Shown piece by piece: positions 55,101 through 60,337 of a stretch of DNA of 60,337 bases. The stretch spans positions 1-60,337 of the forward strand of contig JAVKJW010000014.1 in NCBI GenBank assembly GCA_031458695.1, in the 5' to 3' direction. This stretch comes from Candidatus Thermofontivivens primus (GTDB lineage: Bacteria; Sysuimicrobiota; Sysuimicrobiia; Sysuimicrobiales; Thermofontiviventaceae). Position numbers: made by a program. Positions within the stretch are counted from its first letter, which is position 1. Each line of letters begins with the position of its first letter.

Positions 55101-58100
55101 GTCCACAATCTGGAAAGCCATCCCCCAGTTGAGACCGAAGGTAGCCAGAGCTTCCGCTTCCTCTAACGGAGCCCCGGCGACCAGGGCTCCGGCCCGGCAA
55201 GCAGCCGAGAACAGGCGGGCAGTCTTCCCCTCAATGATCTCGAAGTAGACCTCCTCGTCTGTATGGGGGACGCTCCCCATCTTGATCTGCTTGATCTCTG
55301 CCTGGCTCATCCCAACTGTCGCGTAGGCCATTGCGGGCGCAACCAGCGGATGGCTCACCCGCGAGAGGAGGTGAAAGGATTTGGCAAAGAGATAATCCCC
55401 CAGGAGAACGGCCACTTGGTTCCCCCAGCGCACATGCGCCGTGGCTGTACCACGGCGCATGTCCGACTGGTCGATGATATCATCGTGGATCAGGGAAGCC
55501 ACGTGGATGAGCTCGACGGCCCCGGCGATGTACAGGCGCTCCTCCCCTGCTCCTCCGCACGCCTGGGCTGCGAGGAAGACGAGGGCCGGCCGTACCATCT
55601 TCCCGCGTGTGGAGAGAACGTGGTGGACGAGTTGCCCGATGAAGACATCGTCGGATTGCAGCTCTTCCAAGAGGAGGGAGTTCAGCCTCTCAAGGTCGCC
55701 TGCAACAGGCTCGTAGATTGCAGCAAGATCCACCCCGTTCACCCCTGGGCGTCCTTCATAGGACGGATCCTCCGGCTCCTCAGAGCTCCCTGGCAAACGT
55801 CTCCCGTTCTTTCAAAAAACTCTATTTTGCTTGGCTTTGATTGGCTCGTGAGACTGCCTCACTCTGAGACGGTGAGTGTGGCCTCCATGCCAGCTTCCTG
55901 GTGACCGGGGAGATTACACACAACCTTGTAGGTCCCCGGTTGGAGAGTCACCTCCAGCTTCTTCGTCTCCCCCGGCGCAATCTTGTCGACCTCCCCAACT
56001 CCTTCGATCACGAAGTTGTGCTCTACGGCGCCCTGGTTCTTGATCACAAAGGTAACCTTCCCTGGTTTTGCACGGATCTCCTTCGGTTGGATCGACCACT
56101 CGTTCTCGGTAATCGCGATCTCACCCGCTGCCGATGGTGCTGGGGCAGGTGGCTGGGCCTGCTGGCGTGCGCAGGCTGCGAGCAGCACAAGGGCGGCGAC
56201 AGCGAGGATCGTGGCGCGAACAAATCGCATCGTCCTGTTCCTCCTTTCTATGATGAGAGTACATAGCCCTGTCTCAAGCTTCGGCGATGAGCCCAAACGA
56301 GGCCACGAGCAAGAGGAGGGCGAAGAACACGATGTAGAAAAGGGCATAAGCCAAGATCGTCCCTACACTCTTCCGCCGGATCATCTCCATCACCTAGGGT
56401 ACTTTCCATTATTATAATGCTCGACGGTTGAAAGGACGCCCCTTGACGTTGTCCCCAGCGGAACCTTGTCAAGAGATTTCGTTGGGGCTGCTTTGCTGAG
56501 CGGCCCTCGTCACCGCCTGGCCTCCTGGCACGACCCGCCTGCGCAGATCCTCCAGGAAAGCCTTGATCGCCAAGAGGAATCCCTCCCGATCATGCAGCCC
56601 ATAAGCCAGCATCGTTACCCGCTCTGGATCGATCCTCTGACGCTGGAGGCGGCGGCGCATCTGCTGGATCCTGTTCCTGATGAGAAAATTCCCCTCCCGA
56701 TTCAGGCAGTCCCCATACGGGCACCCGCAGACAAACACTCCGTCAGCTCCGTTCTTCAGGGCGAACTCCAGCCAGGAGGGCCGGATGAACCCCGAACAGG
56801 GGATCATCATCACGTAGACGTTCGGAACCTCCCGGAGCCTCCCGTCCTCCGTGAGCGCACCTTTGAGATCCACGCTCCAGTCGCAGACAAACCCTACCAC
56901 CTTCAGGGTGGGCTTTTCCTGGGATTGCAGAGAGGAACTGTGCTCTAGCTCCGACATGCTGCCAGCACCCTTTCAAGCACTTGATTCTCCATCAAACGAG
57001 GGAGTTCTAAAGCCTGGAACGGGCAAGCGCCAATGCAGATGCCGCATTCTACGCACCGCGACTCAATCACCACGGCAAGCAGCTTGCGGTTCTGCGCTGC
57101 TTTGGTCTGCCCAGGCCTTGGCGAGGGGACCATGATGATCGCGTTGTAGGGGCAGTCATAGTAACAAAGCTCGCATCCCGTGCAGTTCGGCTCAATGACC
57201 TGGGCTACCCCTGCGTGACGGACGCCCATGACCTCCGGCTTCTCCCGGAGTTGGTAAGGGATGTACATTCCATAACTGAACAGGACGAACCCGAGCACGA
57301 TCGCCCAGATCGGTCCAACGTACTTCAGCAACCAGTAAGGCCACATATATAAGAAGTCGAGGGGGATCACCTGCGGCTGTGCCGTGGGGGAGGCGGGCAC
57401 CCCGCTCACCACAGGCACGAGGGAACTGAGGAGAAAGACAAGCCCCAGGCTGAACAGCACCCAGACCGCCGGTGGCCAGATTTTGGGGTGACGGATGCGG
57501 ATATAATGCCACCAGAGCAGGAGGTAGAGGGTCACGGCGGGGACCACGTGGAGGAAGAGAAAACGCACGAGGGTGCGTTCGCCGACTCCCCCTCCTCCCA
57601 GGAGGAGCTCGTTGAGCCACGGGCCAACAAGCGGGATCGACCGAAGCATATGCAGGGTCATTGCCAGGAGGGCCTGCGCCCGGTCGTCCCACGCCATGAA
57701 GTATCCGGTGATTCCCACGAACCCAGCGAAGCCAAGGAGGAACATCCCGGAGATCCAGGGGATATCCCGGGAGAAAAGGTAACGCTCCGTGAACCAGTTC
57801 CGGAAAAGGTGGAGGAGGATCGCTACCATGAACCCATCGGCGGCATAGCGGTGAACCCCGCGGATGATCCTCCCGTACGGGACGCGCTCCGTGATGAAGG
57901 TGATGGAGCGGTGGGCCTCGTTGGGATCCGGCACGTAGTAGAAGAAGAGAAAGATCCCTGAAAGGATCAGGATGGTCAGGAAGAGGTTCGACAGCCCTCC
58001 AGTGTAATACAACGGGTTCCAATCAGAAGGCAGAACGCGGTTGAGCAGGACATCCACTTGGAGGGTGGCTCGCTGCAAGTTCTTCAGGATGCGCTTGTAC

Positions 58101-60337
58101 AACCTCCCTTTCCTCCTTCGTGCTGTGCCAGATTGCCGCGGGGCCCGGTACGGGGCATTCGCAACCTCACTCCTGGATCCATCGCCCCTTCCGGAGAATG
58201 ATCAGGATCAATCCATAGGCCAAGAAGATGATCCCAAGGGAGGCTCCGACAACGAGCTGCTTTCTGGAGAACTCCCCGTAGACAATCGCCCCGCTCGCGG
58301 CGGCGACGATCGCAGACAGCACCAGGATCAGACCCAACAGCTTCCCCTGCGTCATCTCCTTACCTCTGCGTTCCCCGAGCCCGGATCCACCACTCATACA
58401 GCCGGAGGGGCCGTCGCACCCTTCCAGCCCTGCGATCTACTTCGTAGAGGGTAAACCCCAGGTACAGGAAGGAAACAAAAAGGGCGGCGACAACGATTGC
58501 TGCACGTGCCCATGCTTGGACAGTCCCTCTCGCCAGCGCCTCCTCCACTGCCCCGATCAGTCGAGAAAGGGCGAGAACAGCAATCAGGAAGGTGAGATAA
58601 AACCATAGATGCCGCCACATCTTTGCTCCCCTATCCTCCCCCCATCATAGACACAACCGCACCATCGTTCAAGGGGTTTTCTCTGGACGACCTACGCTAC
58701 TCCGAGGCCGGGTTCTCGGCAGGCTTCGGCGAAGACACGAGCTGTCCAAGCTGTCGCCTCCGGTAGCGGATCTCCCAAAGGAGTCCAAGTGCAAGGACCA
58801 CGACGGTGATGGCTAGGATGATTGGTGGATCGCGCTCGATGACAGCGATATTGAACAGAATCAGGACTGTGAACACAAGGAAGTAGACGAGGGCCATGAT
58901 CCCCACCACGGTAAAGAAGGGACGCTCCGAAGGCCGTCTCCCTTTGCTCCTATCCAGAAAGGGGACAAGCATCCCGAAGGCGATGAGCAACCCCGGCCCA
59001 AGACCAGCCCACAGGGGCGGCGTGTACTTGACGAACTGGTAGAGGGCCAGGAAGTACCAGTCCGAGAGAATAGGAAGGGGCGTCCGGTCTGGGTTAGCTC
59101 TCCTCCCCAGTTCCGCTGGGAGGAGGTAGCTGATCGCGGCGAGCATGAGGAAGAAGACCAGGACACTTGCAAGCGACATATTCAACCGCTTGCGCCGGGT
59201 CCGCTGGAAGAAGATCTCCGTGAGGATGAGGGCAATCACAGAGATGCTGAAATGGATCATATAGAACCTGGTGAGGGTTGCCTGGCCGATGGCCGGGCCC
59301 CCGAGGAAGATGTAAGCGATAGCGGAACCAAACCTCGTCTGCCCAATGAGGGGGAGCTCGTCAAAGTAGATGGGGACCGTGAGCACGACCTTGGCCGCCC
59401 AGAAGGCACGCTGGTTCCAGATGAGGAGATAGCCTGTGATCCCAGAAATCATCGCCAGGATCAGCGAGGCGAACGCGATCATCCAGGAGAGCTCCCCTGG
59501 CTTCTTGTACTCCCCCAGGAAGTACATACGGTAGATGCGCAGGGTAATGGCGATGATCAAGGCATCAGCGCCGTACTTGTGGAGGCCGCGGATCAACCAG
59601 CCAAGAGGGATCTCGTGCTGGATGTGCAGGATGGAGTTGTATGCACCGGCAGTGGTGGGCTCGTACCAGATCATAAGGAGGAGACCACTCACGATGGTGA
59701 TGAGCCAGAAGTAGTACACCATCGGGCCGAGGAGATAAAAGGGATTCCCCTGTCTATGGACGTTGGTCTCGTCAAAGAGATCGAGGTGTTCCTTCCGGTC
59801 TTTGATCCATTCCCCAACGACTCCCAACTTTCCCATCCACCTCCCTAACTAGGGAAGCTTTTCACGCCTCGGGGGATCCTCTAGGCGATCCCACCGGGCT
59901 CCACGTCGGTGATGACAATGTCCCCCTCCTTCACCGCAAACAGGAAGGTCCGAGGAGGTCGCGGCGCTGGACCGGAGAGGACCCTCCCTGGGACATCGGG
60001 ATCGGCAGGATCATAGATGCTGAGATGGCATGGGCAGCCCATGAGCGCATGGCGACGATCCGGGGGCGGAACATAGCCTCCATACCCAGATGTGATCTCC
60101 TTCCACTCAGGAACGTAGTTGAAGATGCACCCGAGATGGGGACAGATGCGCGAGAAGGCGACGATATCGCTCTCCTTCCGCTTTTCGCCCGCCCACTCCC
60201 AGGGAAGGACAACCTTCCTGGGGAGGCGGATGACGACCCCTGGAACGGTGGCGTTCTTGAACCCTTCAGGCGTGTACTGGGGATACTGCTGGACGAAGGT
60301 AAAGTACTTGTAACTCCAGGGCTCCCGAAGCTCAGAG

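Follow-up and report, generated by a model that had tools for sequence, protein, structure and literature searches.

The window, the whole stretch of 60,337 nucleotides that was analysed, comes from a hot-spring bacterium and carries near its end an operon whose genes all lie on the minus strand, as seen from a check of open reading frames (ORFs) and Pfam domains. The gene content given by the survey's finding was confirmed by this re-check, and the features are the following:

59881..60337 (ORF 59881-60336, 5' open), minus strand: Rieske iron-sulfur protein, C-terminal 151 residues, PF00355 above cut-off
58697..59836, minus strand: cytochrome b1, 379 aa, about 8 transmembrane (TM) helices, Cytochrome_B 31-210 and Cytochrom_B_C 247-325
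58360..58620, minus strand: sm1, small membrane protein, 86 aa, 2 predicted TM helices
58167..58397, minus strand: sm2, small membrane protein, 76 aa as listed, 2 predicted TM helices
56945..58102, minus strand: cytochrome b2-ferredoxin fusion, 385 aa, TTG start, about 6 TM helices, Cytochrome_B 23-204 and Fer4_7 306-364
56469..56957, minus strand: MvhD/FlpD-type protein (FlpD), 162 aa, PF02662 with 91.8 bits (cut-off 22.3)
55859..56230 (ORF to 56347), minus strand: cupredoxin, 123 aa from the likely start, a Met at 56230

The FlpD gene overlaps the end of the b2 gene by 13 bases. Neither sm1 nor sm2 matched a Pfam or NCBIfam family; a weak homologue of sm1 is present in all loci compared from the order Sysuimicrobiales (14/14), and sm2, for which a Met at 58355 is a possible alternative start, has a match in 9/14 with this query.

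The Rieske gene had been described as cut by the contig end, which is borne out: its remainder is found on contig C25 of the same assembly, the first 141 bases of which overlap window positions 60197-60337 with one mismatch. The N-terminus on C25 carries a twin-arginine (Tat-type) motif, and the boxes CxHxGC and CxCH are both there, as CPHLGC and CPCHLSIYD. Ccm genes are on C25 too, as is a gene for a dihaem cytochrome c directly upstream of Rieske, the latter arrangement being shared by relatives. This cytochrome is the conserved high-potential partner of the complex; it is absent from the window, and so lay beyond the reach of the survey. With the cupredoxin downstream, both a c-type cytochrome and a copper protein accompany the complex. 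Concerning the cupredoxin, it has a signal peptide, a lipobox-like LLAAC and Cu-ligand-like H, C, H and M; its inclusion in the operon did not hold up in related loci of the order, only 3/14 of which contain it, and it is a lineage-specific addition. In bacteria outside Sysuimicrobiales, the operon is linked with genes for a cbb3-type oxidase.

The two cytochromes b

The haem-ligand pattern that the survey had read in b1 was confirmed by alignment to the solved cytochrome b6 of b6f and by a three-way MAFFT alignment of b1, b2 and the canonical cytochrome b of the genome: H86 and R100 lie in helix B, H195 in helix D, and E207 at the position of the second helix-D His. The ligands of the outer haem (bL), H86 and H195, are kept, and R100 and E207 replace the His of the inner haem (bH). 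Since b1 reads H86/R100/H195/E207, the Qo-bearing subunit lacks the four His that are a feature of Rieske/cytochrome b complexes; of the two subunits, b2 alone has all four. The Qo motif is SDWYF in b1 (258-262), where D259, W260, Y261 and F262 are invariant in 18 sequences, LDFLY in b2 and PEWYF in the canonical paralogue. The cd1 stretch is b6-like in b1 and diverged in b2. The best solved matches are cytochrome b6 and the cytochrome b of bc1 (E 6e-35 and 2e-28).

A search of 1.84 billion representatives was used to place b1 in a family, full-length matches being compared. The pattern H/R-or-K/H/E was found in 18 other full-length matches, all with [S/P]DWYF; among the remaining full-length matches listed, 108 have H/H/H/H and a few have other ligand patterns, e.g. 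H/R/H/H and H/Q/H/H. G121 and W118 are invariant in the canonical sequences (108/108 each) and relaxed in the b1 family, b1 itself having A121 in place of the invariant Gly. By these alignments, b1-type proteins are a distinct cytochrome b family and their ligand loss is not due to chance; b1 would bind a single haem, bH presumably having been lost.

Cytochrome b2 keeps all four haem His (H84, H98, H185, H199), as does the canonical copy, in agreement with the survey. The statement that b2 has no Qo motif applies to the letters found in this genome but not more widely, since the ef-loop Asp (D249) is invariant in 25/25 b2 sequences and most other lineages have xDWF[F/Y]; on the same grounds, b2 may keep a p-side quinone site. 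The Cys of the 2x[4Fe-4S] domain (C307/310/313/317 and C350/353/356/360) are invariant at all eight positions, and this C-terminal domain is predicted to lie on the cytoplasmic side. Also, the helix-A and helix-C glycines are kept, and a b6-like R follows the bH ligand. The Cys of the haem-cn motif CxGG is found in neither b1 nor b2, the latter having YTGG at that place. The D-E loop, which contributes to Qi in bc1, is much shorter in both than in the canonical paralogue. These are indirect signs that a Qi-type site may have been lost. The defects of the two proteins are complementary: b1 has a Qo motif without bH ligands, and b2 has the four His with a degenerate Qo motif.

FlpD resembles the MvhD of 5odc (E 1.2e-17). 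Its Cys C25, C54, C79 and C84 are invariant in 22 sequences, enough for one predicted [2Fe-2S] cluster; of the CxxC-like pair near the N-terminus of true MvhD, it lacks the second Cys. When b2 and FlpD were folded together, a score of 0.78 was obtained (best of 3 controls 0.00), with runs agreeing in at least 94% of contacts and a partner pLDDT of at least 76; the mark was reached by 116/157 solved complexes and by 2/215 mismatched pairs, rates which are only rough with own alignments. In the fold, the Cys loops of FlpD (50-59, 80-89) contact the second cluster motif of b2 (351-360) as well as its n-side loops 105, 107 and 203-205. The pass may be due to the pair's resemblance to solved complexes of MvhD with HdrA (5odc among them). 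Proteins that unite cytochrome b, 2x[4Fe-4S] and FlpD in one chain occur naturally.

FlpD could also be read as a dock for a protein encoded outside the operon, either an HdrA-type flavoprotein or a hydrogenase of the Mvh type; the operon would then supply the membrane arm of a system for flavin-based bifurcation or hydrogen oxidation. FlpD is the MvhAG-HdrA adaptor in solved complexes (5odc and others), and in the genome itself contigs C50/C4 carry genes for HdrA-like, MvhD, MvhG and MvhA proteins, and C14 carries a fusion of HdrA with FlpD. HdrA and Mvh hydrogenase genes are both absent from the operon. Across the 52 genomes of the order which hold b1, however, HdrA-like genes are present in 11 and missing in 41, and MvhA-like genes are present in 10 and missing in 42 (single-protein queries, E <= 1e-30, absence meaning not found with these queries), and the genus g6 has both in 6/6 genomes and no b1 orthologue. 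We regard such docking as very improbable.

Co-occurrence, spread and ancestry

Co-occurrence was followed in 33 loci of the one-haem (b1) type with at least 3.2 kb downstream. The b2-ferredoxin gene is present in 32/33 and FlpD in 31/33; the single locus without both belongs to a genome with b2 on another contig, and the other locus without FlpD carries 304 N. Beside canonical cytochrome b genes, b2-ferredoxin or FlpD was found in 0/36 loci. A Rieske match above 60 bits is present in 40/44 one-haem loci, and the operons carry one Rieske gene each. In the Caldisericia, a weaker, Rieske-like gene adjoins b2 and not b1 at one locus (L095), and no Rieske gene was found at the other (L093). Both Caldisericia loci (2/2), and no other loci, have an added AsrA-like polyferredoxin and a NAD-binding AsrB-like flavoprotein, a pair without a tblastn match in the genome studied here at 1e-8.

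The design is found in at least six phylum-level groups, which are Sysuimicrobiota, Melainabacteria/Vampirovibrionales, Deinococcales, Holophagaceae, Caldisericia and metagenome-assembled genomes labelled Proteobacteria; an additional locus in Anaerolineae, cut inside b2, stands outside the 33. In a quick tree, b1 groups with canonical cytochromes b, and b2 groups not with b1 but with long b-ferredoxin-FlpD proteins (P0271-P0277; 96 SH-aLRT), for which reason the complex looks chimeric. Lineages group in similar ways within the b1 clade and the b2 clade.

These data bear on a reading in which two separate enzymes are merely co-transcribed. One would be a quinol oxidase of b1, Rieske protein and cytochrome c, in which both electrons pass to the Rieske cluster in turn and bL serves as a transient store; the other would be an independent b2-ferredoxin/FlpD quinone oxidoreductase, like QmoC, HdrE or the dihaem succinate dehydrogenase anchors. 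The chemistry proposed for b1 corresponds to a slow bypass reaction in known complexes, a point against this reading. The separate grouping of b2, its retention of D249 and xDWF, and the unlinked b1 and b2 of one genome favour this reading, and the b2 type appears able to work without b1 because such fusions occur in clusters without a Rieske gene, at least those described in PMC4122944. Against it stand the strict linkage in 31-32 of the 33 loci, the similar lineage groupings of the two clades and the position of the Rieske-like gene of L095, and we consider it unlikely on balance.

A putative heterodimer with a cytoplasmic exit

The best reading of the locus, to which we give a probability of roughly 45%, is a heterodimer with a compulsory haem-to-haem crossing and a cytoplasmic Fe-S exit. 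The operon would encode one variant Rieske/cytochrome b complex with a b1:b2 heterodimer as its membrane core. Menaquinol would be oxidised at the Qo site of b1, the first electron passing to the Rieske cluster, the dihaem cytochrome c (here perhaps the cupredoxin too) and a terminal oxidase. The second electron would pass to bL, the sole haem of b1, from which it must cross to the bL of b2 and then move down to the bH of b2; transfer from bL to bL between monomers is established for bc1, according to PMC7908018. Its way out would be by the paired [4Fe-4S] clusters of the ferredoxin domain, then by the [2Fe-2S] cluster of FlpD, and so to a putative cytoplasmic acceptor. The survey's proposal of a two-b complex with an Fe-S electron exit gains comparative support for its general outline from the co-occurrence, the complementary defects, the natural fusions and the b2-FlpD fold; the b1:b2 pairing, the single haem of b1, the loss of Qi on b2 and the direction of electron flow are putative. 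The single Rieske gene per operon, the Rieske-like gene beside b2 in L095, the short D-E loops, the polyferredoxin and flavoprotein pair of the Caldisericia and the lack of a third cytochrome b in about 30/52 holders (this query) may be counted in its favour as well.

The same heterodimer could instead have a Qi-type quinone-reducing site on b2, giving a Q cycle with one Qo and one Qi across the dimer. The ferredoxin-FlpD arm would then be a side port: either it feeds low-potential cytoplasmic electrons into bH/Qi, as a hard-wired version of the n-side route proposed from ferredoxin to b6f, or it serves as a drain that opens only on over-reduction of the pool. The four His of b2, its helix-A and helix-C glycines and its b6-like R are in line with this, and entry from n-side Fe-S through bH to quinone would be downhill and barely electrogenic. 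The complex is probably the main-flux carrier, because about 30/52 holders in the order are without a third cytochrome b at E <= 1e-20 (this query), and a main flux is easier to accommodate with a quinone acceptor. Engineered cross-dimer forms of bc1 work, as PMC7908018 relates, and a conserved gene for a cytoplasmic acceptor was not seen in the loci surveyed. On the other side, the D-E loop of b2 is very short, the haem-cn Cys is replaced (YTGG for CxGG), and the n-side loops 105, 107 and 203-205 next to the bH ligand lie beneath FlpD and the ferredoxin domain in the fold; the loss by b1 of its own bH and Qi would also go unexplained. We judge this reading rather less probable than the cytoplasmic exit.

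Against the cytoplasmic exit, reaching the potentials of ferredoxin or NAD(P) would by our own estimate be energetically tight, because electron flow to the n side opposes the membrane potential. If the complex is the sole complex III in many genomes, every second respiratory electron would call for an abundant cytoplasmic acceptor; no gene for one lies in cis, and no cytoplasmic Fe-S flavoprotein with a NAD(P) site is found in the window or the loci of the order.

In its widest form the proposal is more tentative still. It describes an obligate natural heterodimeric complex III with a compulsory bL-to-bL step, whose low-potential electron would be exported through ferredoxin and MvhD to cytoplasmic redox chemistry. 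Two modules would have come together in its evolution: a canonical Rieske/cytochrome b module, from which the inner haem was later lost, and a cytochrome b-ferredoxin-MvhD module that already existed. Its range would cover at least six phylum-level groups; among them are the non-photosynthetic sister lineages of Cyanobacteria, in which it shares an operon with a cbb3-type oxidase. The design is conserved and may send half of the quinol electrons into the cytoplasm. In the review PMC7908018, what the dimer and the bL-bL bridge of bc complexes are for is called 'unclear but intriguing'; if the proposal is true, an enzyme dependent on that bridge would be a natural experiment on its purpose. If the Fe-S arm is an exit, quinone-based electron bifurcation would serve the cytoplasm in aerobes and microaerophiles, a role so far proposed for anammox bacteria only (PMC12954380). 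Metabolic reconstructions of the holder groups and arguments on b6f ancestry may need revision, since in about 30/52 holders of the order this query found no cytochrome b complex other than the present design, and since it forms the 'complex III' of Melainabacteria, where the complex III/IV operon is annotated as plain petB/petC (PMC6349859).

Comparison with known systems

Canonical bc1, b6f and Firmicute-type bc complexes are alike in the Rieske boxes, the Qo-type ef-loop motif and the c-type cytochrome partner. Where they have a single cytochrome b gene, the present locus has a dissimilar pair. One product bears the Qo motif without the ligands of bH; the other has the four His and a 2x[4Fe-4S] extension, its Qo motif being degenerate. 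Further differences are the additional MvhD subunit, the missing haem-cn Cys and the short D-E loop. QmoABC and HdrED modules also couple a dihaem cytochrome b in the membrane to an MvhD-like module and a 2x[4Fe-4S] domain in the cytoplasm, and function in the manner proposed for the b2-FlpD arm. The likeness is one of analogy and not of membership: their cytochromes b belong to the NarI/HdrE type, and b2 has its match in Pfam Cytochrome_B (PF00033).

A cytochrome b-FeS-MvhD fusion was reported in 2014 as the 'PDWF-FeS clade' (Kao and Hunte, PMC4122944), and large cytochrome b proteins were described as 'subfamily H' (Dibrova et al. 2017, PMC5600118). In the portions of both papers that treat these proteins, MvhD is fused, the cluster is without a Rieske gene and the function is called unknown. 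P0271-P0277 probably correspond to these published clades. A cytochrome b, a 4Fe-4S domain and an MvhD/FlpD module are common to both designs; here, FlpD is a separate, overlapping gene (fused in P0271-P0277), the b-ferredoxin has a Rieske protein and a one-haem b as partners, and the PDWF motif is replaced by LDFLY, or by xDWF[F/Y] in other lineages.

The cyanobacterial cytochrome b 'subfamily K' of PMC5600118 is PetB-like, with the helix-2 haem His changed to Glu or Gln and the haem-bn glycine lost. Its members are short, with four helices, and mostly without their own subunit IV; the paper's description of the subfamily leaves a Rieske, ferredoxin or FlpD partner unmentioned. In b1-type proteins the replacements are different ones, namely R/K for the helix-B His and E for the helix-D His.

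The anammox Rieske/cytochrome b complexes share the idea that the low-potential electron of Qo leaves through an n-side Fe-S chain and not to quinone (PMC12954380). The model given there is a homodimer whose b6-type subunits are normal and contain haem cN; the complexes have multihaem c subunits and a flavoprotein, but no one-haem b, b-ferredoxin fusion or MvhD. In the Caldisericia loci the likeness extends to an added NAD-binding flavoprotein.

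Operon layout, distribution and gene linkage

The assembly comprises 2.6 Mb in 56 contigs, and the window is the entire contig C6. All members of the gene set reported by the survey are present on the minus strand; they are listed below in operon order, followed by neighbouring genes, among them those of C25, another contig of the same assembly.

Genes of the operon and its surroundings
59881-60336, open at the contig end, minus strand: Rieske protein, first in operon order
58697-59836, minus strand: one-haem cytochrome b (b1), 379 aa, second, after the Rieske gene
Between b1 and b2, minus strand: two small two-helix membrane proteins (sm1, sm2) without any family
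56945-58102, minus strand: cytochrome b with a C-terminal two-cluster ferredoxin domain (b2), 385 aa
56469-56957, minus strand: MvhD/FlpD protein (FlpD), 13-base overlap with b2
Ends at 55859, minus strand: cupredoxin with a signal peptide, 238-base gap after the FlpD gene
54768-55796: polyprenyl synthase, next after the operon, in the same place in 14 of 14 loci of the order
C25 332-1207, minus strand: membrane-anchored dihaem cytochrome c
C25 1398-1790: CcmE
C25 2048-2725: CcmC

That the Rieske gene is cut by the contig end was borne out, the rest of it being located on C25 (L139). The first 141 bases of C25 equal window positions 60197-60337 with one mismatch, and the N-terminal part of Rieske encoded on C25 contains a twin-arginine motif. 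A truncated Rieske gene is thus ruled out and the cut is an assembly break. A 65.7-kb contig from another hot-spring sample also covers the whole stretch and extends beyond the window's end. The polyprenyl synthase is perhaps there for the quinone side chain. In two loci of family f5 (L049:4388-6894 and L041:12360-14185), FixO-like and cytochrome c genes are found between FlpD and the polyprenyl synthase; just upstream of these genes L049 has a 492-aa ORF with no Pfam match at E ≤ 1e-5, which could be a divergent oxidase subunit.

The conservation claimed by the survey's finding was upheld within the order: a b1 orthologue is present in 52 of 60 other sampled genomes (62-78% identity, E ≤ 4e-102; 51 of 59 without the unpublished G014), and the genes for Rieske, b1, sm1, b2-ferredoxin and FlpD are found in fixed order in 14 of 14 loci. 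The second small protein, sm2, is present in nine of these 14. The cupredoxin gene is present here as stated, but its place as an operon part is not general, as only 3 of the 14 loci have one.

Based on a family-alignment scan of species-representative genomes, 80 loci were kept, 44 one-haem and 36 canonical (four haem His). According to record titles, the one-haem loci come from Sysuimicrobiota (some labelled Armatimonadota), Melainabacteria/Vampirovibrionales/Obscuribacter, Deinococcales, Holophagaceae, Caldisericia, Anaerolineae and MAGs labelled Proteobacteria. Where at least 3.2 kb lie downstream, a four-His b2 is found in 32 of 33 one-haem loci and FlpD in 31 of 33. The exceptions are L089, with 304 N in the locus, and L067, where b2 is on a different contig of the same genome and is 71% identical to a relative's b2. 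Neither b2-ferredoxin nor FlpD adjoins the canonical cytochrome b gene in any of the 36 canonical loci; in one of them (L110) an FlpD that is not related lies some 3 kb upstream. That b1 and b2 belong to two separate enzymes is improbable beside this linkage, the separate contig of L067 notwithstanding. Both Caldisericia loci carry an AsrA-like polyferredoxin (Fer4_22) and an AsrB-like flavoprotein (NAD_binding_1 and DHODB_Fe-S_bind) directly ahead of the one-haem b (L093:3150-5026 and L095:6035-7952), a pair absent from the remaining 78 loci; in L095 a Rieske-like gene adjoins b2-FlpD.

Concerning transcription, short contigs at least 99% alike to the window were found in two RNA-library runs of one study (55828-56004, 56135-56434, 56254-56577, 57855-58213 and 59794-59958). 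Because such libraries may include DNA, and the contigs show neither strand nor level (gaps in coverage carry no meaning), they give a weak hint that the operon region is transcribed. RNA-library contig X8 has 9 additional bases behind the intergenic position 56416, probably a strain variant. Scans returned 2 promoter-like sites (1.5 expected) and 10 terminator-like sites (4.6 expected), with no convincing site of either kind at gene borders.

Haem ligands and origin of the two cytochromes b

In an alignment with cytochrome b6 from solved b6f structures, b1 retains the first His of helix B (H86) and of helix D (H195); R100 takes the place of the other helix-B His, and the positions 14 and 15 residues past H195 hold no His. 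All four positions are His in b2. The assignment of the individual b6 His to each haem is standard background. In a three-way alignment of b1, b2 and the canonical cytochrome b on contig C4, E207 of b1 falls exactly under the fourth His. The repeat alignment thus gave what the survey had described, namely Arg100 and Glu207 in place of the inner-haem His of b1 and four His in b2, and its readings of the Qo motif were confirmed (SDWYF in b1, LDFLY in b2, PEWYF in the canonical copy).

A HMMER search of 1.84 billion representatives with b1 as query gave 5349 proteins at E ≤ 0.001, and those of the best 150 rows that are full-length were aligned. Among these, 18 rows have the pattern H/R-or-K/H/E, all with [S/P]DWYF, 108 have H/H/H/H and a few have other patterns. 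Across 18 aligned sequences of this family, H86, H195, E207, D259, W260, Y261 and F262 are invariant and R100 is nearly so, being otherwise K. G121, in helix C, and W118 are present in 108 of the 108 canonical rows of the best 150; in the one-haem family, position 121 is A in 11, S in 3, G in 2 and C in 1, and position 118 is W in 8, Y in 4, F in 3 and I in 2. Judged by the patterns at R100, E207, G121 and W118 in one-haem versus canonical rows, four independent places near the inner haem are altered together. The conserved Arg and Glu occupy the sites of two axial His, and we infer that a salt bridge between them would stand in for the inner haem. In other phyla b1 is longer, but a cytochrome c domain at its C-terminus was ruled out, as CxxCH is found in 0 of 44.

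The origin of b1 and b2 was addressed with a quick tree, unrooted and built on the four-helix domain (LG+G4, SH-aLRT only; 74 hand-picked rows, that is, every fourth representative plus chosen loci). The one-haem proteins form one clade (98), grouped with canonical cytochromes b (98), and 13 of 15 b2 rows are found with long fusion proteins on the opposite side (96); the two Caldisericia b2 rows lie near this split without firmly joining a side. Recent duplication is therefore unsupported, and the complex appears to combine two modules, one canonical Rieske/b and one b-ferredoxin-MvhD.

The iron-sulfur arm and candidate partners of FlpD

In b2 (n = 25), the four His, D249 and the eight Cys of two CxxCxxCxxxC motifs are invariant. 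The ferredoxin domain comes after about six hydrophobic helices, which places it on the side of the N-terminus; in known cytochromes b this is the cytoplasmic side, and the domain is predicted to be cytoplasmic. FlpD has four invariant Cys and aligns at E 1.2e-17 with the MvhD of solved Mvh-Hdr complexes. There are also single-chain proteins (703-785 aa) in which two cluster motifs and FlpD are fused to a four-His cytochrome b. Three of them (P0275-P0277) have a C-terminal CxxCH past a further hydrophobic stretch, so a single chain may carry redox domains on either side of the membrane.

The predicted fold of b2 with FlpD scored 0.78 (best of 3 controls 0.00), with contacts agreeing by at least 94% between runs and a partner pLDDT of at least 76; among 157 solved complexes, 116 reach the mark used, as do 2 of 215 mismatched pairs, counts that are approximate here because own alignments were used. 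In the model, Cys-bearing loops of FlpD would lie against the second cluster motif of b2 and the n-side loops beside the ligand of the inner haem (bH). Since solved MvhD complexes exist, part of this pass may be memory of them.

Looking at partners in the same genome, HdrA-like, MvhD, MvhG and MvhA proteins are encoded on contigs C50 and C4, and an HdrA-FlpD fusion on C14. In the order (single-protein queries, E ≤ 1e-30, G014 included), an HdrA-like match is found in 18 of 60 genomes and 11 of 52 b1 holders, and an MvhA-like match in 16 of 60 and 10 of 52. On these single-protein counts, HdrA or Mvh hydrogenase is rejected as the general FlpD partner, and a role of the arm as an Hdr/Mvh docking module is very unlikely, even with such genes in this genome. 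No conserved gene is found 3' of FlpD in the annotated loci.

C50 (4085-6430; L052) breaks off, and C4 (2-2969; L053) starts, within one MvhD gene, where the protein stretches encoded by both are identical; if joined, the two contigs would give genes for an EtfA-like protein, a CCG-domain Fe-S protein, HdrA-like, MvhD, MvhG and MvhA proteins and hydrogenase maturation. In relatives, six MvhA-like matches have one in-frame stop each, TAG in G038 and G059 and TGA in G005, G010, G042 and G018; the TGA stops might encode selenocysteine.

Proposed electron path and comparison with known systems

Two MqnA/MqnD-family genes are present in the genome, and MenA gave no match, so menaquinone is likely made via the futalosine route. 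The Rieske box CPCHLS[V/I]YD is found in 34 of 42 Rieske sequences beside a one-haem b; its Ser and Tyr are a mark of higher-potential Rieske proteins. For anammox bacteria it has been argued that menaquinone together with a high Rieske potential implies a very low bP potential (PMC12954380).

The best reading, with a rough probability of 0.45, is a b1:b2 heterodimer. Quinol electrons would be split at the Qo site of b1, and the low-potential electron would be obliged to cross from the outer haem (bL) of b1 to bL of b2, then run down b2 and out by the Fe-S arm. Transfer from bL to bL is an established step in bc1, according to the passages of PMC7908018 consulted. A Qi-type site could instead be kept on b2 of the same heterodimer, the Fe-S arm being a side port, perhaps for cytoplasmic electron entry; we consider this the main alternative, though less likely. 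With the query used, about 30 of the 52 b1 holders show no other cytochrome b, so most of the flux probably runs through the complex, and nearby genes do not encode an abundant acceptor, which would suit a Qi site; the very short D-E loop and the modelled contacts of FlpD with the n-side loops speak against it. The complex III variant is real, conserved and widespread; the mechanism is a proposal.

Concerning earlier work, the literature searched, subscription papers and supplements aside, yielded no account in which a one-haem, Qo-bearing b is obligately paired with b-ferredoxin and MvhD; Dibrova 2013, Soo 2017, Kartal 2013, ten Brink 2013 and the supplements of PMC5600118 and PMC4122944 may bear on priority. 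A 2014 paper had already pointed out the b-FeS-MvhD fusion, there lacking Rieske and having no known function (PMC4122944). The sections of PMC5600118 (2017) seen mention a cyanobacterial b missing one His, as well as large cytochrome b proteins whose function is unknown. For anammox complexes, a published hypothesis holds that the low-potential electron is exported (PMC12954380). In Obscuribacter and in one MAG each of Deinococcales, Holophagaceae and Vampirovibrionales, and in one labelled Gammaproteobacteria, Rieske is preceded by genes for CcoN (COX1), for a fusion of FixO with cytochrome c and for a dihaem cytochrome c. The Melainabacteria 'complex III/IV' reported in PMC6349859, annotated petB/petC in the portion consulted, has the same arrangement as these CcoN-linked one-haem operons.
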